20,000 bases of DNA, from assembly GCA_039621445.1 (NCBI GenBank), contig CP154954.1, forward strand, positions 14,856,236 to 14,876,235, written 5' to 3'. Source of the stretch: Euglena gracilis. Its lineage: Eukaryota. The position numbers and the translations under genes were made by a program. The notes beneath the pieces were generated by a model. It was not told the DNA's origin. It saw only the letters and a program-made list of their open reading frames with translations, and searched no databases. Positions 5,321 through 19,940 of the stretch are shown in pieces (the stretch's first letter is position 1; every line of letters begins with the position of its first letter).

Positions 5321-5398
5321 TGGGGATGCCCACCCCGCAGTGCCGGCACTGCGTGGCACTGCATGGCACCGCGTGGCACTGCGTGGCACTGCGGGCCG
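5321..5398 (+). repeat. 10-bp minisatellite (GTGGCACTGC)n with head TGGGGATGCCCACCC
   Basis: Direct reading; an inverted copy lies at 6197-6328. Confidence 0.85.
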
Positions 5399-6196: not shown

Positions 6197-6328
6197 GGCC
6201 CGCAGTGCCACGCAGTGTGACGCAGTGCCACGCAGTGCCACGCAGTGCCCACGCAGTGCCACGCAGTGCCACACGCAGTGCCACACGCAGTGCCACGCAG
6301 TGCCGGCACTGCCGGGTGGGCATCCCCA
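6197..6328 (-). repeat. Inverted, longer copy of the 5321-5398 array, (GCAGTGCCAC)n
   Basis: Ends in CAGTGCCGGCACTGCCGGGTGGGCATCCCCA, the reverse complement of 5321-5351 with one mismatch. Confidence 0.85.
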
Positions 6329-7370: not shown

Positions 7371-8835
7371 AAAAAGATTGTTTTGGGCAATTTTTTTTCG
7401 ATTCTTTTCGACATTTTGGACCCGGAGTTTTATTCGACTTTTTTGACCCGGAAATGACCCAAGGTGCTGGGAAGCTGGCGGGTCGAAAAGCGTTCATTTA
7501 CCCCTGGAAAACAGCTTTTTGGCCAATAAACATGGTTCTGGGCAAAAAAGAATTTTTCCGCTCGCTGCTTTTTTTTAAGCCCCGAAATGGCCGAAAACGA
7601 AGGAAGCCTGCCACGCTGTTTTGGGCCGTAAATTGTTCATATCTCGCGCTGGTGGGGATTTATGGGGAAGTCAAAATATCATTAGATAGAGCGTTCCAAG
7701 GGCTTCAATTTAGGTCTCCGGATATTTCCTTTGATTTTGCTTCATTTCCAAGATATTTTTGAAACCTCGATATTTCGGCCCCGAAAACAGCCTAAGATGG
7801 CCCCAGAAACAGGCAAAATTGGCCGGAAAATGGCTGTAATTTGGGCTGCACGAAGAGTTTGGGTTCAGTAAAACATTGTTGGATAGGGCATTCGAGGGCG
7901 TCATTTCTGGACTGTGGACATTTTCTTTTGTTTTTCTTGATGTATTTCGAAGGAAAATCGGTTTTTTTGACCGAAATTCGACCCCAAAAAAAAAACTCAG
8001 GCGGGACATCTCGCACTTGAGATTTTTTTCTTTGTTGATGTGCACAATTGCGCACATTGACATCTTTCAGACATCTTTTATGAAAATGACATGATATAAC
8101 CCCTAAAAACCGAAAATGTGAACAAGATGTGATGGGGTGCCTCAAAACGCGGAGGTGAAAACAGGGATTTTAGTCGAGAGGATGCCCAGGAGCAGGCATC
8201 ACTGTGCTCCCCAGGTGGAAATGGTCATTTTGTACTTTGCCTAGTTTTGTTCCATTAAAAAGTTCCAAGTATTGCAAAACGGGCAGTTTTGGCAGGTTTT
8301 GGGGGGGGGGGGTCAAATAAAAAAATTCCGGTGCTTCGAGCCGGTCACTTGTAACAAAACCACCACCAACCTGCAAGCGGACCCCCCTGGGCCCAAGCGA
8401 AATTTGGTTTCTGGTGGCTTGCAAAATGGCTAGCTAGTGGATCCAGCAGGGATAGATGGGAAGTCCTTCAGCTTTGAGTAGGTGGTGGGAGGGTCCAGAC
8501 CTTCCTGGGGGTGACGTGCCACCCCCCAGATGTTGGGAGGGAGTGGCCAGACCCCCACCCCCCATCCTTTGCTGGTTTCAAAAGTAGCGAAAAAATTTCC
8601 TCCGGTGCTGCGCCCAAAGACAGCCCAGCAAGACACGAGGGCCAGTTGGGGGAGATTGGGGGACCCGCACCTCGGACCTCCCAGGAGAGAGGGGTCCAGT
8701 TAGTAGCTTTTCCAGTGGCGATTTTGCAGACCGCCCGATTATTACAGTTCCTCATTTTTCATGACAAATCGTCCCATCATGCTGTTTTTTTTTTTGGTAT
8801 TGGCGTTCGATTCGCCGCCCCTGGTCCTGAACCTT

Positions 8836-9155
8836 TGCAATCTGACCAAGTTTTACAATAATCATTTTTTGTTCCGTCCTAGTTAGTTTGTATGTTATAG
8901 TAAGACAATATTTTCCTTCCCACCTCATTTGTTGCACTGCAACCACTTTGACGATGCCGTGTCTTTGCCTGTGGTGACAGAAGGTGCTTTATTTGCAGCT
9001 GTCTGTGCAGTGTCCACTGAACTGACCTGCAAGAGTGTGAAATTTGTTTGTTTTTTTTGCGTTTTTTTTTTGTTTGACTCCCTGTTTACATTTTGAGGCA
9101 CTTACCCCCCCCCCCCATGTGTTATGAACCCCTGTACAGGGTTCATAACCTTCCA
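8836..9155 (+). repeat. More diverged repeat, paralog of ~13260-13615
   Basis: Shared blocks such as TGCAATCTGACC, ACCTCATT.GTTGCACTGCA.CCACTTT, TTTGCCTGTGGT, CTGTGCAGTGTC.ACTGAACTG and CTTACCCCCCC..ATGTGT.ATGAACCCC. Confidence 0.8.
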
Positions 9156-10298
9156 GTTTGTCAGCTTTCACAGCATAGAAAAAGCCCATACACCCGCGCT
9201 CAAAGAATTTACCTAATTCGGACTCTCCAGATTTCAATTTGGTGTCTAATCAGGTTGGGGGGGGAAATACATGAAATAAAAATTAACCTGCGTTTTATGG
9301 ATTCCAGACCATTTCACATTCCCTCATTGGAAAGTGGTCAACCAACGATGGTGGGTCATAAATTGTCACTGCGTGACAGGACAAGGTATCGGAATATTGG
9401 CACAGGGCTGGCCCCTTTCCAACCCATTTGGAACCATGCAACGTGCTGTAGCGTCCCCCAATGGCTGCATCATTCATCGAACATTATTATGCTCCTGCAA
9501 CTTTGTATTTTGGTGGGATTTCAAGACCCTCAAGGGGGGGCTTTACAGAATTTACATGTTTCGGGGGGGAAGTCAAGCTTATCTGGGTGACCTATGCAAG
9601 ATTTGCTGTGTATTCCTATTTTCCTCAATAATGTGCATTTTTCTGTCGGAAACGGACGTTCTCTGTTGAAATTCTTGTATCCACCCGAAATTTTTTCAAC
9701 TTTCTTCTGGAGGACTCCATTGAGGGGCTTCGTGTTTTTTTGGGGTATTTTGGGGGTTTTGCAATATTTTTGTGTACGACTTCCTGAATTTCTGGGACAA
9801 AGAGGGGGTTGGCTTTCAGAATTTGAAAGTAGCAAGTTTGACTGATTCAGCCTGCGTCCATCAACCAATCGCCCCGCTGACACCTAATTGTACAGCTTCC
9901 CACGCTTTCCCCTGCTTCGAGCCCAGGCTTCTGCAGTTGCGCTGAAATGCTAAATTGGTGTAAGGAGAATGGGGGGCAAGCGCCTGGGGGTGGTGGGGAG
10001 CTCCCCTCACCGTGTTCAAAAATTACGACATGTGCGCAGAATCGGCACATTACCCACGCCGGGGGGGGGGGGGCGCGCAAGCGCCGGGGTGAGTGGAATC
10101 CAGACCAAAGCTCGGTGTGCTTCGGAGAAAAGAACCGGAAGCCTTTTTTTTCGCAGAAGTCTCTCCGCGTTCCTTTGGGAGTCGCTCCATGGAAGCCGTG
10201 CGGCAAGCTTGCCACCATTGAGGTGTTGAAGTGGCGCAAGTCGAGCCCCGCTTCATCTTGCAGCCCCGAAGCTGGTTGTTGCTGGCCCAGGGTGAGGT
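9147..10298 (+). repeat. ~1.15-kb dispersed direct repeat, copy 1
   Basis: Near-identical to 14124-15276 from AACCTTCCAGTTTGTCAGC to GGCCCAGGGTGAGGT; the ORF track gives the same peptides for both copies. Confidence 0.95.
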
Positions 10299-11705
10299 CC
10301 CCTGGGCCCAAGAAAACGTTTGGTGGTGCTTTGCCAATTATTTGGCACAATGCAATCACCCTCGCCTACGCACCCAATGACCAACCTACCTCTCTGCATT
10401 TGAGCTTCGAAATGGTAACCGATACCGCTGACGTTATTGTTTCCTTCGGGGGGCACACCTCTTGCAATCTGAAGTGTGCCACTGGCTGAATGACTCTCCT
10501 TCCCAGCCTGCCATAGGGTGGACTCTGGCCTGAATCGCCCCTGACCGCCTTTAATTTTACCTCCCTGAACCATCAAATGTGCTGATGAGCTACCGCAGGT
10601 AGGAGGTTTCGCAGGCGAATTTCCGTGATTCCAGCAATGATTGCTTTGTTCTTGTTCCAATTATCGGGAAGTCGTTAGCTGAATATGAAACAAACATTTC
10701 CGCCTGGCCATGCAAAAGATAACAAGCAAAAGAGCGATATAAAAAAAAATTCAGTAATTCAAACAGAGCCGCCATGGATGCCTTTCAAACCGACGGGGAA
10801 AATGAAAATGTGTGTGAGTATTAAGTGTTTTCTTGAGGAACCCAAAGTCCGCCTGCCAAGGTGCTGGCTGGACCCCCTTTTTCAGCTAAAAAGGTAATAA
10901 CACCCGCCCTCAAAACACCCGCTCTTCACCGACTTTTTTATATACCAAATTTCATTTATTTGCATCCAAAACAGATCCCCCAGCCCACCTTCGCCCTGGG
11001 ACCTCTCCCCCCCTCTCCCCCCCCCCCCCCCCCGTCACCCTCACTCTCCGCCTGTTTTTTGATTGCATTTGCATTTGGATCTTTTGTTTCCCACCTGAGT
11101 TGGTCTGAAATGTATGCTTATCTTTCCTTCTCCTCCGTCCGCCATGGGGCCCACACAGTCAGACGCCCCCCAGTCTAGTGCGGTGCCCCGAGGCGCCGTC
11201 CCCTCACTCGCCACCGCACGTGTGCCGCATTCTGCCTCGGTCGCCTCCATTCCCAGGGTGGGATGGGCAGCTGGTTTGCCCAGGCGTGGGGATGCCATTT
11301 TCCAGAAAGGGACCATGGAAGCTGAGGATGGGGGAGCACCGGAGCTCCCCCAGGTTTTCACCTCGCATTTTGCTTTTTGACACGAAGATCAGGCTGTATT
11401 GTCGGGTGACGACCCCACCCGGGGGGGCTGCCTGTCTGGGCACTCCAAGGCACCCCAAATCTGACCTGAGTTTTGAAGGCTTTTCCAAAGTTTCCAATGC
11501 CCCCCACCGGGATCTGTGAAAACTGTCGGGGCGCCAGCAAAACTTTGTTGTGTTTTCATTTTTTTAAATAAAAATGTTTAAGCCGTTCGCTTTTGGCATC
11601 CCATGCTTTGCTGGCGCTGCCGGCCCACCCTGGCGGTCTCTTCCTCCCGCCGTTGTGCCTCTGCTACTTGGCCGGGACGCTCCCCCCTCCGGTCTGCACC
11701 GCCAG

Positions 11706-11993
11706 CAAGCTCCTACAGTAAAAATGGCCGAAAATGAAAAAAAGTTTCTTTGGTGGATTCTGGTTGAAGTTGATCTACTCTCAGAAAAAAGAAGCCTATT
11801 CCCAAAACCTTGCATTTGCATATTGTAACAAAAACTCTTTGAATATTTTTAATTTCTTGGATGTGTTTACATGAATGATCAAATGCATTGTTGGCATGCA
11901 GGGATTTAAAGGTAACTTTACCCCCACCTATAGGAAAAAGTCGCCGAAAATGGCCGAAAATGGCAAAATTCTGGGGTCAACTGTAGGTGCTTG
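11706..11993. mobile_element. 288-bp insertion bounded by 14-bp imperfect inverted repeats (MITE-like or stem-loop-intron-like)
   Basis: CAAGCTCCTACAGT (11706-11719) and ACTGTAGGTGCTTG (11980-11993) are 13/14 complementary; the flanks are contiguous in the paralog at 19818-19829. Confidence 0.75.
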
Positions 11994-12693: not shown

Positions 12694-13259
12694 CTGGAGG
12701 TGTCCAAACCACCCTGCCTACTAATTTCATAACCTGGTCGAACCCCCCCCCTGGTCAGAAACAAAAATAAATGTTTCTGCGATTGCCTCCCTGGTCACAG
12801 ACGAACATTCATGGTCGTTGAACAGGAGGGATGGGAAGTTGTTGCGGGTTGAGAAAACGTCGAGATCTGGACGATGATGAACAATGCAACCAATTCCTAA
12901 TGATCACGCTTCTTCATGAGTTTTCACAGTTCAACCCTGGGGGGGGGGGACTGCAGCTAGTCCAAATTTCCCTTGAGGGCGGTCCGCAGGTTGGTGGTGG
13001 TTTTTTGATACAAAACTGAAGAAAATTTTTATTTGACCCCCCAAAATCAAAATTTGCCAAAAATGACCGTTTTGCAATTTTTGGAATATTTCTTGAAAGA
13101 AAACCAGCCAAGAAACGAACTCACCAAAAACCCATTTCCATTGTGTGTGTGTGTGTGTGTATGTGCGCACGTGTTTATGGTTGTGTGCAAATTGTCCCAT
13201 CATGCTGGCTTTTCGTATTGGCATTCGATTTCACTCCACTGGTCCTGGACTTTTGCACC

Positions 13260-13615
13260 TGCAATCTGACCCAGGTTGTCAGAAATCATTTTGTTCCACC
13301 CTACTTGTTATATGTGTTATAGAAGGAGAACGCTTCCTTCCTTCGTACCTCATTCGTTGCACTGCAGCCACTTTCACCGTGCCATGCCTTTGCCTGTGGT
13401 CACGGAGGGTGCGTTGTTTGTGGGTTTCTGTGCAGTGTCAACTGAACTGCACTCCAACCCTCTCCGCTGGTGAGAGTGTGTTCAAAACCTGGCTTTTGCT
13501 TTTGTCGTTTGTTTGACTGTTGTTGTTTTGTTTGACCCTCTGTTTGTGTGTTGCTTACCCCCCCCCATGTGTAATGAACCCCCTTGCCCAATGAACAGGG
13601 TGTCCGAACCTTCCA
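13260..13615 (+). repeat. Diverged paralog of 8836-9155
   Basis: Collinear shared blocks with 8836-9155. Confidence 0.8.
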
Positions 13616-14123
13616 GGTTCAGGTATGTGCCGTCACTGCTTTGACGGGGCAACGTATCGGAAGATTTGGCACAATGCTGCTTTCGGCATGGCCCCATTCC
13701 AACCCGTCATGGAACCATGCAACCTGCTGAAGAGTCCCCCACTGTCTGAATCTTTTGTTGAACACTTGTTGCATTTTTCTCCACATCAAAATGCATTACA
13801 CGTCGTGTTTTAAGTTTCTGTCCCCCAAACATCCACTCCTATCGACAGAAGTGCTTCTTTTGCATTTCCAACTCAGGCAAATTATTTTTGATGTGAAGTG
13901 AAGTGGGATCGGCTTCCCCCTCAGGTCTCCCAATCTCCCCTCGGGTTTCCAGTCCCCCCCACACTGTCTGTGGAAACTGACGGGGCGACAGCAAATTTTG
14001 TGGTGTTTGGAAATGAAATGTTGAAGTTTTCAAGTCCCAAAATTTTCCCGCACATTTTTTCCCCTAGGTGCATTTTTGCCCCCAGGAGAGAATCCAACCT
14101 CCCCCCTGAACAGGGGGGGTCCG

Positions 14124-15276
14124 AACCTTCCAGTTTGTCAGCTTTCATAGCATAGAAAAGCCCATACACCCGCGCTCAAAGAATTTACCCAATTCGGACT
14201 CTCCAGATTTCATTTTGGTGTCTAATCAGGTTGGGGGGGAAATACATGAAATAAAAATTAACCTGCATTTTATGGATTCCAGACCATTTCACATTCCCTC
14301 ATTGGAAAGTGGTCAACCAACGATGGTGGGTCATAAATTGTCACTGCGTGGCAGGACAAGGTATCGGAATATTGGCACAAGGCTGGCCCCTTTCCAACCC
14401 ATTTTGAACCATGCAACGTGCTGTAGCGTCCCCCAATGGCTGCATCATTCATCGAACATTATTATGCTCCTGCAACTTTGTATTTTGGTGGGATTTCAAG
14501 ACCCTCAAGAGGGGGGCTTTACAGAATTTACATGTTTCGGGGGGGAAGTCAAAGTTATCTGGGTGACAAATGCAAGATTTGCTGTGTATTCTTATTTTCC
14601 TCAATAATGTGCATTTTTCTGTCGGAAACGGACGTTCTCTGATGAAAATTGTGTATCCACCCGAAATTTTTTCAACTTTCTTCTGGAGGACTCCATTGAG
14701 GGGCTTCGTGTTCTTTGGGGTATTTTGGGGGTTTTGCAATATTTTTGTGTACAATTTCCTGAGTTTCTGGGACAAAGAGGGGGTTGGCTTTCAGAATTTG
14801 AAAGTAGCAAGTTTGACTGATTCAGCCTGCGTCCATCAACCAATCGCCCCGCTGACACCTAATTGTACAGCTTCCCACGCTATCCCCTGCTTCGAGCCCA
14901 GGCTTCTGCAGTTGCGCTGAAATGCTAAATTGGTGTAAGGAGAATGGGGGGCAAGCGCCTGGGGGTGGTGGGGAGCTCCCCTCACCATGTTCAAAAATTA
15001 CGACATGTGCGCAGAATCGGCACATTACCCACGCCGGGGGGGTGGGGGGGGGGGGCGCAAGCGCCGGGGTGAGTGGAATCCAGACCAAAGCGGTGTGCTT
15101 CGGAGAAAAGAACCGGAAGCCTTTTTTTCCGCAGAAGTCTCTCCCCATTCCTGTTGGAGTCGCTCCATGGAAGCCGTGCGGCAAGCTTGCCACCATTGAG
15201 GTGTTGAAGTGGCGCAAGTCGAGCCCCGCTTCATCTTGCAGCCCCGAAGCTGGTTGTTGCTGGCCCAGGGTGAGGT
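14124..15276 (+). repeat. ~1.15-kb dispersed direct repeat, copy 2
   Basis: Matches 9147-10298 with scattered substitutions and small indels. Confidence 0.95.
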
Positions 15277-15365
15277 AATGCGGACTGCCCTTCACCTTAG
15301 GTCTCGGTGTTTGAAGACAGAACTTTTTTGCAAGACGAATTGGGTCCCAGAAAATCCTCATTTTT

Positions 15366-15466
15366 GGTTACCTGGAGCCTCCAGGGAGGCTTCAGGGAGG
15401 CTGGTTACCTGAGCCTTCCTGGAGCCTCCCTGGAGCCTCCCTCTGGGGAGCCTCCCTGGAGGCTGG
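15366..15466 (+). repeat. (CCTGGAGCCTC)n 11-bp repeat family with GGTTACCTG head
   Basis: Same family at 19334-19547 and, degenerate, at ~2843-2890. Confidence 0.85.
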
Positions 15467-15703
15467 TATATATATACATATATACATATATATACATATA
15501 TATACATATATATGTACATATATATGTATATATATATATATAAAATATATGTATATATATACATATACATATATATACATATACATATATATACATTCCT
15601 ATATATATATATATTATATATAATATATACATATATATACATATATATGTATGTATGTATATATATACATATATACATATATATACATATATATACATAT
15701 ATA

Positions 15704-15740
<37 letters not shown>
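15467..15740. repeat. Compound (TA/TACA)n then (TG)n microsatellite
   Basis: Direct reading. Confidence 0.97.
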
Positions 15741-15745
<5 letters not shown>

Positions 15746-15907
15746 ATTTACGCCATGACCGCCAATGGCAGAATTGGTTGAAACATTTATCCATTAGCCA
15801 CAACGACGCCATGTCCGCCTGATTTTGCTTTTACCGTTTACCCGTTTGCTATTTACGCTTTGTCCGCCAAATTTTGACCACACAAAAGGATGTTGTTATT
15901 GGAGAGC

Positions 15908-16033
15908 AGGGGGGAGGAGTGTAGGGGGGAGAGGGGCAGGGGGGTGGGAGGAGGGGGGGTCCGGGGGAAGGGGGGAGGGGGCCGCAGGCCCCCACCCCCC
16001 CCCCCCCCCCCTCCCCCCCCCCCCCTCCCCCCC
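15908..16033. repeat. G-tract followed by C-tract (G-quadruplex or fold-back potential) next to the TRIM insertion site
   Basis: Multiple G4+ runs at 15908-15981, then near-pure C at 15989-16033. Confidence 0.75.
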
Positions 16034-16041
16034 GGGCACAG

Positions 16042-16374
16042 TGTTTACGTTGGTCGTCACCACCCGCCGTTGGACGGCCACGGGGCAGCTCATACTGCTT
16101 GCCGTGGCACGCCCTCAGGCGGGGAACTACACCCAAGGTCCGGCCAACCAGTGTCTCGTCCTTGGGCGCAGTTACACGCGCCAGTCGATCCCCGCGGTAT
16201 GCCCTCTGCCCGTACGGGATCGACCAGGACTCACACGGCGGGACCTGGGTCTCGAACCCACGACCTCCCGTGTGTGAGCCCAGCACCTTACCGAATAAGC
16301 TACTCGAGCGATACTCGGCTTGGTACTACGCGCCGGCTACCAACCTCCGTAGGATCTCCCGTCTGCCGCACACA
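16042..16374 (-). repeat. 3' LTR (333 bp)
   Basis: Plus strand TGTTTACG...GCCGCACACA; preceded on the minus strand by PPT; abuts TSD CACAG at 16037-16041. Confidence 0.93.
16237..16309 (-). promoter_or_regulatory. tRNA-derived (Val-CAC-like) Pol III internal promoter within LTR; not a functional tRNA
   Basis: Minus strand GCTCGAG TA GCTT ATTCGGTA AGGT G CTGGG CTCACAC ACGGG AGGTC GTGGG TTCGAGA CCCAG GTCCCGCC. A-box-like TAGCTTATTCGG and B-box GGTTCGAGACC at tRNA spacing. D and T stems pair; acceptor and anticodon stems are broken. Confidence 0.85.
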
Positions 16375-16384
16375 CTCCCCTCCC
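16375..16384 (-). promoter_or_regulatory. Polypurine tract (plus-strand primer)
   Basis: Minus strand GGGAGGGGAG directly before the LTR's TG start. Confidence 0.85.
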
Positions 16385-16719
16385 AAGAGCCTTACTACAT
16401 TAGCCCACTGCGTCACTATGGCCGTGGCCCCTGCAGCTCGGGTTATGCCTCACACGGCCCTAGTTGGCTGAGTGCTTCTCACGAGTACTGCGTCACCAGG
16501 CTGCCGACCCCTGCAGCTCGGGTTTGCTATTGCCGGCAGTTTACGTATTGTCGATTTCCACGGGCTCTGCCGCCTTGGAGCGTCCCCCTTTTGCATCGGC
16601 TTGAGACTTTGGAACGGTGTAGGAGTTTCAGTCGCCCTAGACTCGGCGCGTCCGCCTCCGCCTTCCGGGCGCCGTGGGGTCAGGCTCTGATTTCCCGGTT
16701 CGTGTGGCATTAGACGGGT

Positions 16720-16732
16720 TCCTCTGCTACCA
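16720..16732 (-). promoter_or_regulatory. Primer-binding site complementary to the initiator tRNA-Met 3' end
   Basis: Minus strand TGGTAGCAGAGGA directly after the LTR's CA end; plus strand TCCTCTGCTACCA equals the 3' end, including CCA, of metazoan-type tRNAiMet. Confidence 0.9.
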
Positions 16733-17065
16733 TGTTTACGTTGGTCGTCACCACCCGCCGTTGGACGGCCACGGGGCAGCTCATACTGCTTGCCGTGGCA
16801 CGCCCTCAGGCGGGGAACTACACCCAAGGTCCGGCCAACCAGTGTCTCGTCCTTGGGCGCAGTTACACGCGCCAGTCGATCCCCGCGGTATGCCCTCTGC
16901 CCGTACGGGATCGACCAGGACTCACACGGCGGGACCTGGGTCTCGAACCCACGACCTCCCGTGTGTGAGCCCAGCACCTTACCGAATAAGCTACTCGAGC
17001 GATACTCGGCTTGGTACTACGCGCCGGCTACCAACCTCCGTAGGATCTCCCGTCTGCCGCACACA
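16733..17065 (-). repeat. Middle (shared) LTR (333 bp)
   Basis: Identical by eye to 16042-16374; PPT on one side, PBS on the other. Confidence 0.93.
16928..17000 (-). promoter_or_regulatory. tRNA-derived Pol III promoter in middle LTR
   Basis: Same sequence as 16237-16309. Confidence 0.85.
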
Positions 17066-17075
17066 CTCCCCTCCC
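17066..17075 (-). promoter_or_regulatory. Polypurine tract, second copy
   Basis: CTCCCCTCCC on the plus strand abutting the middle LTR. Confidence 0.85.
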
Positions 17076-17410
17076 AAGAGCCTTACTACATTAGCCCACT
17101 GCGTCACTATGGCCGTGGCCCCTGCAGCTCGGGTTATGCCTCACACGGCCCTAGTTGGCTGAGTGCTTCTCACGAGTACTGCGTCACCAGGCTGCCGACC
17201 CCTGCAGCTCGGGTTTGCTATTGCCGGCAGTTTACGTATTGTCGATTTCCACGGGCTCTGCCGCCTTGGAGCGTCCCCCTTTTGCATCGGCTTGAGACTT
17301 TGGAACGGTGTAGGAGTTTCAGTCGCCCTAGACTCGGCGCGTCCGCCTCCGCCTTCCGGGCGCCGTGGGGTCAGGCTCTGATTTCCCGGTTCGTGTGGCA
17401 TTAGACGGGT

Positions 17411-17423
17411 TCCTCTGCTACCA
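17411..17423 (-). promoter_or_regulatory. Primer-binding site (tRNA-iMet), copy next to the 5' LTR
   Basis: TCCTCTGCTACCA immediately adjacent to the LTR boundary at 17424. Confidence 0.9.
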
Positions 17424-17756
17424 TGTTTACGTTGGTCGTCACCACCCGCCGTTGGACGGCCACGGGGCAGCTCATACTGCTTGCCGTGGCACGCCCTCAG
17501 GCGGGGAACTACACCCAAGGTCCGGCCAACCAGTGTCTCGTCCTTGGGCGCAGTTACACGCGCCAGTCGATCCCCGCGGTATGCCCTCTGCCCGTACGGG
17601 ATCGACCAGGACTCACACGGCGGGACCTGGGTCTCGAACCCACGACCTCCCGCGTGTGAGCCCAGCACCTTACCGAATAAGCTACTCGAGCGATACTCGG
17701 CTTGGTACTACGCGCCGGCTACCAACCTCCGTAGGATCTCCCGTCTGCCGCACACA
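17424..17756 (-). repeat. 5' LTR (333 bp)
   Basis: Same sequence with one visible substitution (C at 17653 vs T at 16271/16962); abuts TSD CACAG at 17757-17761; followed on the minus strand by PBS. Confidence 0.93.
17619..17691 (-). promoter_or_regulatory. tRNA-derived Pol III promoter in 5' LTR
   Basis: Same sequence as 16237-16309 except the substitution at 17653. Confidence 0.85.
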
Positions 17757-18194
17757 CACAGCCAAATGAACACCATTTTGGATTTCAAGTGACCCTTTTT
17801 TTGCACGGCAAATAATTTAGGTACAATTCTGGCCGAATAAATTCATTTTCGGTTTCAATTAAGCTCTATGTTGCCTCCCAGCCTCCCATTACACCCATCT
17901 TGGCTTTTTTGCAAAATGTTTTATTTTTTTGCTAATTTGGGCTATTTTGCATTGATTTGGGCAAATATTGGGCAAATTTGGGTCAATATGAACACCGTTA
18001 TGGCATTTTTGGTCATTTTGTGACATTTTGGTGGTTTTGGGTATTTTTGTGGATTTTTGTGAAATTTTTGTCGATATTGTTGGCATTTTTGGGCTATTTA
18101 AGGTTATTTGAAGCTATTTTAGGTCATTTGGTTGCTCTTTGGGGCTTTTGTGGTCATTTTGGCTCGGTTGTGAGCCAATGGATGCAGGCACCAG

Positions 18195-19170
18195 GCAAGA
18201 TGCTGATATGGACAAGGTGCAGACGCTGGACAAGATGCAGACACTGGACAAGATGCAGACGCTGGACAAGGTGCAAATTTGGACGAGGTGTAGTGGTTGC
18301 GGATGCTGGACAAGATGTACTGGTTGTAGATGCTAAACAAGATGCAGATGTTGGACAAGATGCAGTGGTCGCAGATGATGGACAAGATGCAAATACCAGA
18401 CAAGATGCAGTGGACGCAGATACTGGACGAGATGCAGATGCTGGACAAAATGCAGACACTGGACAAGATGCCGTGGATGCAGATGCTGGACAAGATGCAG
18501 ACGCTGGACAAAATGCAGACGCTGGTCAAGATGCAGATGCTGGACAAGATGCCGTGGACGCAGATGCTGAACAGGATGCAGATTCTGGACAAAATGCAAA
18601 CGCTAGACAAGGTGCAGATGCTGGACAAGATGCAGTGGTTGCAGATGCTGGACAAGTTGCAGATGCTGGACAAAATGCAGATGCTGGACAAGATGCAGAT
18701 GCTGGACAAGGTGCAGGCACTGGACAAGATGCAGACGCTGGACAAGATGCAGATGCTGGAAAATATGCAGTGGTTGCAGATGCTGGACAAGATGCAGATG
18801 CTGGACAAAATGCAGACACTGGACAAGATGCAGATGCTGGACAAGATGCAGTGGTTGCAGATGCTGAACAGGATGCAGATTCAAGACAAGATGCAGTGGA
18901 TGCAGATATTGGACGAGATGCAGATGTTGGACAAGATGTAGATGCTTGAAAAGTTGTAGATGTTGGACAAAAGAGGACAATATCGGACAACATGCAATGG
19001 TTGTAGATATTGGACAAGATGCAATGGATGCAGGTACTGGACAAGGTGTAGATACGACAAGGTGCAGAGACCACACAACATGCAAATACGGGACAAGATG
19101 TTGACGTTTGACAAGATGCAGACACTGTACAAAGATTCAAATGCTAGTCAAGATGCAGATGTTGTCCAGA
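18195..19170 (+). repeat. 18/27-bp minisatellite GGACAAGATGCAGATGCT; possibly coding (GQDADA/GQDAVVADA repeats)
   Basis: Units built from 9-mers GGACAAGAT, GCAGATGCT and GCAGTGGTT; ORFs 17957-18949 and 18330-18941 run through it. Confidence 0.9.
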
Positions 19171-19333
19171 TGTTTCACATCTCTTCTTCTTGTGCCTCGC
19201 TGTGCCTGCATTATCCCATTATCCTTGTCACATCCCCGGCGAGCAACTGCTGATTCATGCATTCTGAGTCTACAACACCACAGATTGCATCACGGCACAA
19301 CACCTGTCCCACTGTCGTCTTGTGCACAAAACT

Positions 19334-19547
19334 GGTTACCTGAGCCTCCCTGGAGCCTCTATGGAGGCTCCCTGGAGGCCTTGGTATCTGAGCCGCCCTG
19401 GAGTCTCCTGGAGGCTCCCTAAAAGGGAGCCTCCCTAGAGGCTGGTTACCTGAGCCTCCCTGGAGCCTCCCTGGAGCCTCCATGGAGCATCCCTGGAGCC
19501 TCCCCGGAGCCTCCCTGGAGCTTCCCTGGAGCCTCCGGCAGGTAACC
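19334..19547 (+). repeat. (CCTGGAGCCTC)n array bounded by GGTTACCTG...CAGGTAACC inverted ends
   Basis: GGTTACCTG at 19334-19342 and CAGGTAACC at 19539-19547, with 11-bp units between. Confidence 0.8.
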
Positions 19548-19726
19548 TCCAGGGCAGGATTCTATTTTTGCGGTAGACCCAAATGAATTTGCGTGTCGGC
19601 GCAAAGTTACAATCACTTTCAAAGCCATGTGCGAGTTAGGCGGCCTAAGACAGCGAAACTCGTTGTGTTTGATTCTTTTCCAATAAAAATGGTGATACCG
19701 CGGCTCGTTTGTTTCGTCCTATTCCC

Positions 19727-19940
19727 TGCCGGCGCTGCTGGCCCACCCTGACAGTCTCTTTCTTCCACCGTCATGTCTCTGCCATTGGCCGAGACGCTCC
19801 CCCCTCTGGTCTGCACCGCCAGCGCTGACTGCACCTCCAGCGCGCCGGGCCTTCCACACTCTCTCAGCCACCACGAGTCGCGCACTCTCGGGTGGCAAAG
19901 GGACCTTTCTTCCCCTGGACTGACCCCGTGTGGAAAGCCG
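19727..19940 (+). repeat. Uninterrupted paralog of 11609-11705 + 11994-12100
   Basis: Shared GGCGCTGC.GGCCCACCCTG, GACGCTCCCCC.TC.GGTCTGCACCGCCAG, CTGACTGCACCTCCAGCG.GCCGGGCCTTCCAC, GGTGGCAAA.GGACCTTTC and GTGGAAAGCC. Confidence 0.85.

Follow-up and report, generated by a model that had tools for sequence, protein, structure and literature searches.

A tandem three-LTR miniature retrotransposon, probably of the Helenus type, with a degenerate tRNA-like sequence in each long terminal repeat

Introduction

Helenus elements – miniature terminal-repeat retrotransposons (TRIMs) that carry tRNA-derived sequence inside the long terminal repeats (LTRs) and are classed as TRIMp3 – are on record from rust fungi and agarics, from six phyla of animals and from the lycophyte Selaginella (Kojima 2024, PMC10886601). 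Here we analyse a 20,000-nucleotide stretch of genomic DNA (the window) whose minus strand carries, at 16042-17756, a short non-coding LTR element with a tRNA-like sequence in every LTR. We consider it highly probable that this element is a young, non-autonomous TRIM of the Helenus type.

The described Helenus families differ in the signals that betray their helpers. In fungi a 5-bp target-site duplication and a primer-binding site (PBS) for initiator tRNA-Met (iMet) tie the elements to Copia, and Copia-9_PGr matches LTR-1_PTrit; animal families, in contrast, show 4-bp duplications, Gypsy-like PBS regions and primers corresponding to Lys, Leu, Trp, Arg, His, Ile, Pro, Glu and Ser tRNAs (PMC10886601). 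The likely source proposed for the tRNA-like part is a tRNA-derived short interspersed element (SINE; PMC10886601). Two other TRIM groups draw upon small-RNA genes. Cassandra, a non-coding TRIM from plants, has in its LTRs a 5S rRNA-derived RNA polymerase III (Pol III) promoter and, according to the accessible part of PMC7215508, forms LTR-internal-LTR tandem arrays; its LTR includes a Pol III terminator, which results in an 18-nt terminal redundancy (PMC10886601). Ajax, another TRIMp3 element with a 5-bp duplication, combines a partial 5S promoter with a PBS for tRNA-Leu and is known from no more than two nemerteans (PMC10886601). A literature search on TRIMp3, Helenus and Ajax turned up, in such portions of the reports as were available, none that widens the host range of Helenus.

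Results

Reading of the sequence, together with a repeat finder, resolved the 1,715-bp block into the order LTR-internal-LTR-internal-LTR: three LTRs of 333 bp and two spacers of 358 bp, with successive LTR starts 691 and 691 bp apart. Comparison by script showed the middle and 3′ LTRs to be identical and the 5′ LTR to depart from them by one base, at window position 17653, while the two internal domains are the same in sequence throughout (Table 1). In the sense of the element – the minus strand – each LTR begins with TGT and ends with ACA, and the full order is 5′ LTR-PBS-internal-polypurine tract (PPT)-LTR-PBS-internal-PPT-3′ LTR, enclosed by a single pair of duplications. The structure is a tandem of two units that have the middle LTR in common, and not a simple two-LTR element. 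One unit with its two LTRs measures 1,024 bp, inside the 311-1,263 bp reported for Helenus (PMC10886601). Direct TG...CA repeats upon a short element are likewise a Helenus trait, and here they differ by no base or by one.

The signals of LTR-retrotransposon replication stand exactly where Helenus has them. Both copies of the PBS (TGGTAGCAGAGGA) directly abut the LTR that precedes them in sense, and both copies of the PPT (GGGAGGGGAG) directly abut the LTR that follows. The 13 nucleotides of the PBS equal the opening 13 letters of the tRNA-Met(i) PBS primer in PMC1797187, a report in which, by its accessible part, the PBS of HIV-1 was made complementary to human tRNA-Met(i). In a second report the PBS motif belongs to an unrelated wheat qPCR primer, and an 18-nt stretch with the B box was found in no paper. 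The 5-mer CACAG flanks the whole block on both sides, in keeping with the short (4-6 bp) duplications of Helenus. A lack of coding capacity, also typical of Helenus, is equally apparent: none of the three open reading frames (ORFs) across the element (3/3) matched a Pfam family above cut-off. A sense ORF of 188 aa had no homologues among proteins of 103-329 aa; its sole match among protein representatives (E 1e-5, 27% identity) consists of five stretches, the best of them 43 residues of a 962-aa protein, and was taken as chance. The internal domain at 17066-17423 contains two 38-nt direct repeats 80 nt apart, and its predicted RNA fold shows no excess stability (z 0.73). A BLASTN comparison of one 691-bp unit with the 20,000-nt window gave, beyond the copies in the block itself, only matches of at most 39 nt.

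On the main points of structure the original prediction, made from sequence alone, is borne out. The three 333-bp TGT...ACA LTRs, the iMet PBS, the PPT, the 5-bp CACAG duplication and the absence of coding capacity were all recovered. It had also described a complete TRIM with tRNA-bearing LTRs: this holds, with the qualification that the TRIM is a tandem of two units.

A critical component is the tRNA-like sequence. In all three LTRs a degenerate stretch of 73 nt begins at LTR base 66, that is 65 nt inside the repeat, on the strand that also carries PBS and PPT. Run on a single LTR at E up to 10, Rfam returned two matches. One was the tRNA family RF00005, aligned on the minus strand over model positions 1-71 of 71 with CUCACAC as the anticodon loop; it scored 15.8 bits, where the threshold is 29 (E = 1.4 over 4227 families, or about 3e-4, by our arithmetic, if only the family named beforehand is counted). 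The other, mir-662, was dismissed (19.4 bits against a threshold of 88). The tRNA was the sole small-RNA gene matched in the LTR by Rfam, and the 5S rRNA-derived sequence that marks Cassandra and Ajax was not found there by the same search. With the full window as query and an E limit of 1, Rfam gave 41 matches, none within the element and none to tRNA or 5S.

The promoter boxes tell of conservation within this degenerate setting. A combined A/B-box pattern matched three times in the window, always in an LTR, and in none of 300 shuffled windows. The B box is perfect (GGTTCGANNCC) and the A box retains TRGCY...YGG; indeed, TRGCY...YGG and GGTTC, both present here, are the motifs conserved in boxes A and B of Helenus (PMC10886601), whose LTRs similarly contain a tRNA-derived part that is unlikely to be functional as tRNA. 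The affinity to Val-CAC also has a precedent: the tRNA part of fish Helenus was aligned with tRNA-Val-CAC (Figure 2c legend, PMC10886601). A visual reading of the 65 nt upstream of the tRNA-like part revealed no TATA-like motif.

Given a tRNA model aligned over its full length and an anticodon of CAC, one might ask whether the three stretches are functional tRNA-Val genes. We regard this as scarcely credible: the score falls short of the threshold, 3/7 acceptor and 2/5 anticodon-stem pairs in the RF00005 alignment are broken, the minimum-energy fold of the 73 nt on their own is a pair of hairpins and no cloverleaf, and ARAGORN called no tRNA gene. Because several stem pairs are broken and the fold is not that of a tRNA, the stretch is, as far as its sequence reveals, a tRNA-derived relic in which the promoter boxes are kept, and not a tRNA gene. 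The tRNA-Val(CAC)-like part had been predicted 65 nt inside each LTR, on the strand of PBS and PPT; position and boxes agree, with the model score remaining below threshold.

Evidence that the element belongs to a family came from sequencing runs. A run search with 14000-19500 found 20 runs that share part of the stretch: 14 of DNA type (0.41-0.47 of words; 13 labelled as one organism, A, and one as another, B), five doubtful RNA runs (0.15-0.20 of words) and a leaf-litter metatranscriptome (0.10); four further RNA runs of raw reads were added by species label. Four runs – DNA contigs (X1), the leaf-litter contigs (X20) and two sets of raw RNA reads (X21 and X24) – were compared with 17066-18190, which spans one internal domain, one LTR and flank, with no long repeat inside. 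Summed word depth is not a copy number and only its contrast between places was used.

In X1, 2,502 contig pieces fell on this stretch, repeats in the flank included. The internal domain had a summed depth of 33,000-94,000. For the LTR the figure was 47,000-387,000, with 47,000-76,000 in the middle of the repeat and 248,000-387,000 over 17560-17749. At the LTR edge it dropped from 248,567 (17712-17749) through 23,746, in the bin that holds the edge, to 3,303 (17788-17825), a fall of about 75-fold, so that the LTR terminus marks the end of the repeat. At sites in the LTR, variant letters were carried by tens of distinct contigs (31 at 17437, 39 at 17479, 47 at 17720 and 55 at 17724), and listed contigs 90-92% alike span the region from the tRNA-like part to the LTR terminus. 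The family, as seen in these DNA contigs, is very abundant and diversified.

The tRNA-like part is a constant of this family and not a one-off insertion at the present locus, because 17619-17691 has no listed variant at 10% of depth or more – flanking parts of the LTR show several – and because it is retained in a subfamily with a replaced U5 part. In that subfamily one X1 contig has a joint from 17430 to 17560 that substitutes ten other letters for the 129 nt of 17431-17559. Moreover, loose ends at 17557 and 17560 lead into other sequence upstream, and depth over 17484-17559 is 4-8 times below that of 17560-17749. What the LTR subfamilies share is their first 197 nt, made up of the tRNA-like part with 65 nt upstream of it and 59 nt beyond; they vary in the U5 part, which in the commoner ones seems to be different or shorter. 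Because the 65 nt that precede the tRNA-like part belong to the abundant unit, this is an LTR and not a free SINE. Among the outcomes that the original prediction had named as undoing it were a lack of other copies and a one-off SINE insertion. What the X1 contigs reveal instead is a very abundant, diversified family that stops at the LTR edge, and in which the tRNA-like part is the most abundant portion.

The tRNA-derived SINEs (SINE2) make an instructive comparison, for their head, too, derives from a tRNA and contains A and B boxes. They differ in being without LTRs, PBS or PPT and in being copied at the target by the machinery of long interspersed elements; the present element has all three features and lacks an A-rich tail. 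The abundant unit differs from a SINE, too, in including sequence upstream of the tRNA-like part and in ending at an LTR terminus.

The joint that connects an LTR to the PPT of a unit (17756>17066) was present in X1 (two contigs, depth 8,649), in X20 and in one X24 read. The X20 instance is a 661-nt contig of the unit with seven other letters and one gap; it does not show transcription, as an RNA library can contain DNA. Contigs built from de Bruijn graphs cannot separate a tandem from a collapsed two-LTR element.

A distinct feature of the flank emerged from the same comparison. The short stretch 17960-17991 had very high depth in X1 (207,372 in the bin 17940-17977), with loose ends on both sides; it was the best-covered place in both raw-read RNA runs and was present in the leaf-litter RNA contigs as well. 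It is a separate, very abundant, transcribed short repeat.

Several features speak to the age of the insertion. The ratio of observed to expected CpG is 0.975 in the element and 0.605 in the rest of the window; this, together with LTRs that differ at one of 333 bases, points to a recent insertion in a genome that is losing CpG, as judged by composition. At four sites (17167, 17238, 17479 and 17565) X1 depth is mostly or wholly for another letter and the copies in the window agree with one another, whence the locus belongs to a minor subfamily.

The odd base at 17653 bears on the origin of the tandem. In X1 no alternative letter reaches 10% at this site; the letter common in the family stands in the 5′ LTR, and a rare one in both the middle and the 3′ LTR. 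Since a single duplication pair surrounds the whole structure and the letters at 17653 are so distributed, the three-LTR form most likely arose at the locus after insertion. The order of events would have been insertion of a two-LTR element, then a point change in the 3′ LTR, then unequal exchange between LTRs or duplication of a unit. Tandems with shared LTRs are reportedly known from maize Wukong. They have also been documented in Cassandra (accessible part of PMC7215508) and, as tandem arrays, in the Helenus element LTR-11_DR (PMC10886601).

Two alternatives to an origin after insertion have to be weighed. The tandem may have inserted whole, through read-through or template-switched cDNA, or may be an artefact of assembly. 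Tandem LTR retrotransposons of rice were concluded to stem from single insertions, according to the available text of PMC11899658; one duplication pair around the entire structure would fit the same history, and de Bruijn contigs are blind to the difference between tandem and collapsed forms. Against this, the letter found at less than 10% occurs at the 17653 equivalent in the middle and 3′ LTRs and the common one in the 5′ LTR, which is most simply explained by mutation followed by duplication of a unit, and apart from this site the 691 bp of the two units agree throughout. We therefore think insertion of the finished tandem, or an artefact, rather unlikely. Far less probable still is that the block is a local repeat of 691 bp – a nascent satellite, TRIM-like by resemblance and never mobile. 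It does have a period of 691 with about 2.5 units, and TRIMs can seed tandem arrays (accessible part of PMC7215508), but chance resemblance would have to account for a PBS and a PPT exactly at the LTR junctions, for TG...CA termini and for a flanking duplication, and a local repeat would hardly belong to a family whose depth stops at the LTR edge and which is spread over many variant contigs. Formation of the tandem at the locus, from an inserted two-LTR element, remains the reading that we prefer.

Table 1. Coordinates of the element's parts and of its target-site duplications in the window.
Feature	Position	Strand	Basis and remarks
Target-site duplication CACAG, downstream side in element sense	16037..16041		Identical 5-mer at 17757-17761
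3′ LTR, 333 bp, TGT...ACA in sense	16042..16374	-	Same as middle LTR; 1 difference from 5′ LTR
tRNA-like sequence, 3′ LTR	16237..16309	-	Same 73 nt as middle LTR; A/B-box pattern match
Internal domain, second unit, 358 bp	16375..16732	-	PPT GGGAGGGGAG 16384-16375; PBS TGGTAGCAGAGGA 16732-16720
Middle (shared) LTR	16733..17065	-	Repeat finder and script comparison
tRNA-like sequence, middle LTR	16928..17000	-	A/B-box pattern and sequence reading
Internal domain, first unit, 358 bp	17066..17423	-	PPT 17075-17066; PBS 17423-17411
5′ LTR	17424..17756	-	Putative U3 17756-17692; putative R-U5 17691-17424; odd base 17653
tRNA-like sequence, Val-CAC-like, degenerate	17619..17691	-	RF00005 alignment; A box TAGCTTATTCGG 17684-17673; B box GGTTCGAGACC 17640-17630
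Target-site duplication CACAG, upstream side in element sense	17757..17761		Matches 16037-16041

The surroundings of the element are rich in repeats. It adjoins a (TA)n/(TG)n microsatellite (15467-15740), an array of G-rich 15-mers (15908-15981) and a C-rich run of 45 nt (15989-16033); these microsatellite, G-rich and C-rich stretches, within 15467-16035, produced spurious miRNA matches in Rfam. On the other side lies a minisatellite (18190-19170) of 9/18-bp period with consensus TGGACAAGATGCAGACGC, about 38 copies and higher-order periods of 63-135, which is open in several reading frames. Elsewhere in the window a direct dispersed repeat of 1.17 kb (9129-10298 and 14103-15276, 96% identical) contains ORFs without a Pfam family and is accompanied by weaker related pieces (8765-9159 with 13188-13619, 70%; 9365-9483 with 13632-13764). 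Tandem repeats of 10 bp, GGCACTGCGT and CGCAGTGCCA, lie about 800 bp apart at 5345-5393 and 6201-6304 and resemble reverse complements of one another in shifted register. A further dispersed pair (11535-11706 and 19651-19823) is 77% identical over 175 nt.

Pfam found no family in ten ORFs of the window. In a larger set – 107 of the 138 ORFs of at least 75 aa, after 31 that lay inside 15300-19200 or were of low complexity had been dropped – nothing credible appeared: the only matches were to GET4 (E 0.003) and BIRC6 (E 0.009), with one member each, and about one such match is expected by chance in 107 queries.

Discussion

Structure and family data together argue for a young Helenus-type TRIM, and the observations that weigh against this interpretation are best considered side by side. 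A C follows the LTR end at the internal junction and in the flank alike, and the sequence formally allows an LTR of 334 bp with a 4-bp duplication (ACAG); this reading needs a non-canonical LTR start, and by the TG...CA rule 333 bp and 5 bp are to be preferred. The tRNA-like part scores below threshold and forms no cloverleaf, and ARAGORN found no tRNA gene in the window – a state that suits a relic retained as a promoter but equally one that is dead. The evidence for dispersal consists of the drop in depth and the variety of contigs in one run, X1, with no second copy directly seen in flanks of its own, and searches of public collections with exact motifs brought up nothing related among metagenome, genome and viral contigs (one metagenome contig with a match of just 20 nt was judged unrelated).

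Data on transcription belong on the same side of the balance. About 5-6% of each of the two raw-read RNA runs was read, and such libraries may miss Pol III RNA. The element was covered at a depth of 0-6 reads, which over the LTR lay on both strands; over the internal domain X24 gave one to three reads in one orientation. No cluster of starts of RNA molecules was found in either run at this depth. The reads at 17565 have the letter of the family majority and therefore come from other copies. Finally, the LTR is without a T-run terminator, unlike that of Cassandra. The sense strand of the entire element is free of TTTT, which is not significant given that 56% of shuffles are likewise free of it, and the first TTTT lies 155 nt past the 3′ LTR.

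How might such an element be propagated? We lean, if only slightly, toward the tRNA-like part serving as an internal Pol III promoter, a role suggested by the boxes that it has kept. TFIIIC and Pol III would use the A and B boxes, and RNA would start near LTR base 66 (about 17691 in the window); U3 would then consist of the 65 nt upstream, and R-U5 of the other 268 nt. This is the start that had originally been predicted, and it keeps its place in the scheme, with the reads over the LTR (depth 1-6, both strands) having given no start cluster. The RNA would have to extend for at least 691 nt, across the U5 part, PBS, internal domain and PPT, to reach the next LTR. An autonomous LTR retrotransposon would supply Gag, reverse transcriptase and integrase in trans; initiator tRNA-Met would prime minus-strand synthesis by the helper's reverse transcriptase, and integration would produce the 5-bp duplication. 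With no terminator visible, strand transfer would depend on long homology between LTRs.

The tRNA-like part could instead be a passenger, the relic of a tRNA-derived SINE in an ancestral LTR, with RNA made by Pol II or by read-through from host genes. Its degeneracy (15.8 bits against 29, no ARAGORN call, no cloverleaf) and the LTR's want of a Pol III terminator are what such a history would leave, and sparse reads on both LTR strands without a start cluster resemble passive transcription of scattered copies; moreover, Kojima himself notes that promoter function has not been validated for Helenus (PMC10886601). Yet a mere passenger would not readily explain the perfect B box GGTTCGANNCC and the preserved TRGCY...YGG of the A box, the freedom of 17619-17691 from variants of at least 10% amid an LTR that has several, or the survival of the tRNA-like part in the subfamily that has lost 129 nt of U5. 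The orientation of the tRNA-like part with the element's sense, and the 65 nt upstream in which no TATA-like motif is visible, also tell against it. On this evidence we think a passenger somewhat unlikely, and lean slightly toward a Pol III promoter in the tRNA-like part. To our knowledge, experimental support for Pol III transcription exists for Cassandra only.

With regard to classification, the structural features – short direct LTRs, junctional PBS and PPT, flanking duplication, absence of coding capacity and boxes A and B inside the LTR – are those by which Helenus is defined, and by this definition, read from the sequence, the element is a Helenus: a new example and not a new kind. The original prediction was correct in recalling Helenus as the tRNA-bearing counterpart of Cassandra. 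The design itself, for which it had suggested a possibly new family or host lineage, was published in 2024 from fungi, a lycophyte and six phyla of animals. In one dimension the element does exceed what is on record: its LTR of 333 bp is longer than the longest reported for Helenus, 323 bp (PMC10886601). If the stated maxima cover all families of PMC10886601 the element lies outside them, being set apart by LTR length and not by sequence comparison. It also unites traits that are separate in PMC10886601, namely a Val-CAC-like tRNA part and, as in some fungal families, a 5-bp duplication with a PBS for the 3′ end of iMet. Cassandra and Ajax are the more distant relatives in design: the small-RNA-gene sequence of the present LTRs is tRNA-derived, and theirs is from 5S rRNA.

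The nature of the helper is a central issue. The 5-bp duplication and iMet primer match the Copia-linked type of fungi and plants and not the Gypsy-linked, 4-bp type of animals, and because of this combination a Copia-like helper, as proposed for fungal Helenus, may be envisaged. BEL elements and certain Gypsy elements likewise leave duplications of 5 bp. For that reason our analysis leaves the odds for a Copia-like helper about even.

The acceptor-stem part of the PBS is of a type that we take to be metazoan. With about 1 Gb of distinct contig letters in X1 and a moderate CpG loss in the background, this suggests, as a lead only, an animal with a large genome. Were the host an animal, the element would provide the first case of a Copia-linked Helenus in that group, with a 5-bp duplication and the 3′ end of initiator tRNA as primer, a possibility that we advance tentatively and rate below even. 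If true, the Pol III-headed TRIM design would have arisen independently in a new lineage, in a family both extremely abundant and very recently active, and the rule that animal Helenus elements are Gypsy-linked with 4-bp duplications would need revision.

The presence of a small-RNA-gene promoter in the LTRs of a TRIM marks a rare meeting point of the strategies of SINEs and LTR retrotransposons. As a young, intact copy of a very abundant family, the element is suited to testing whether the LTRs of Helenus recruit Pol III, and its 5-bp duplication and iMet primer provide a handle for locating the helper. Elements of this kind also inflate predictions of tRNA genes, and masking them is advised in the annotation of this genome.

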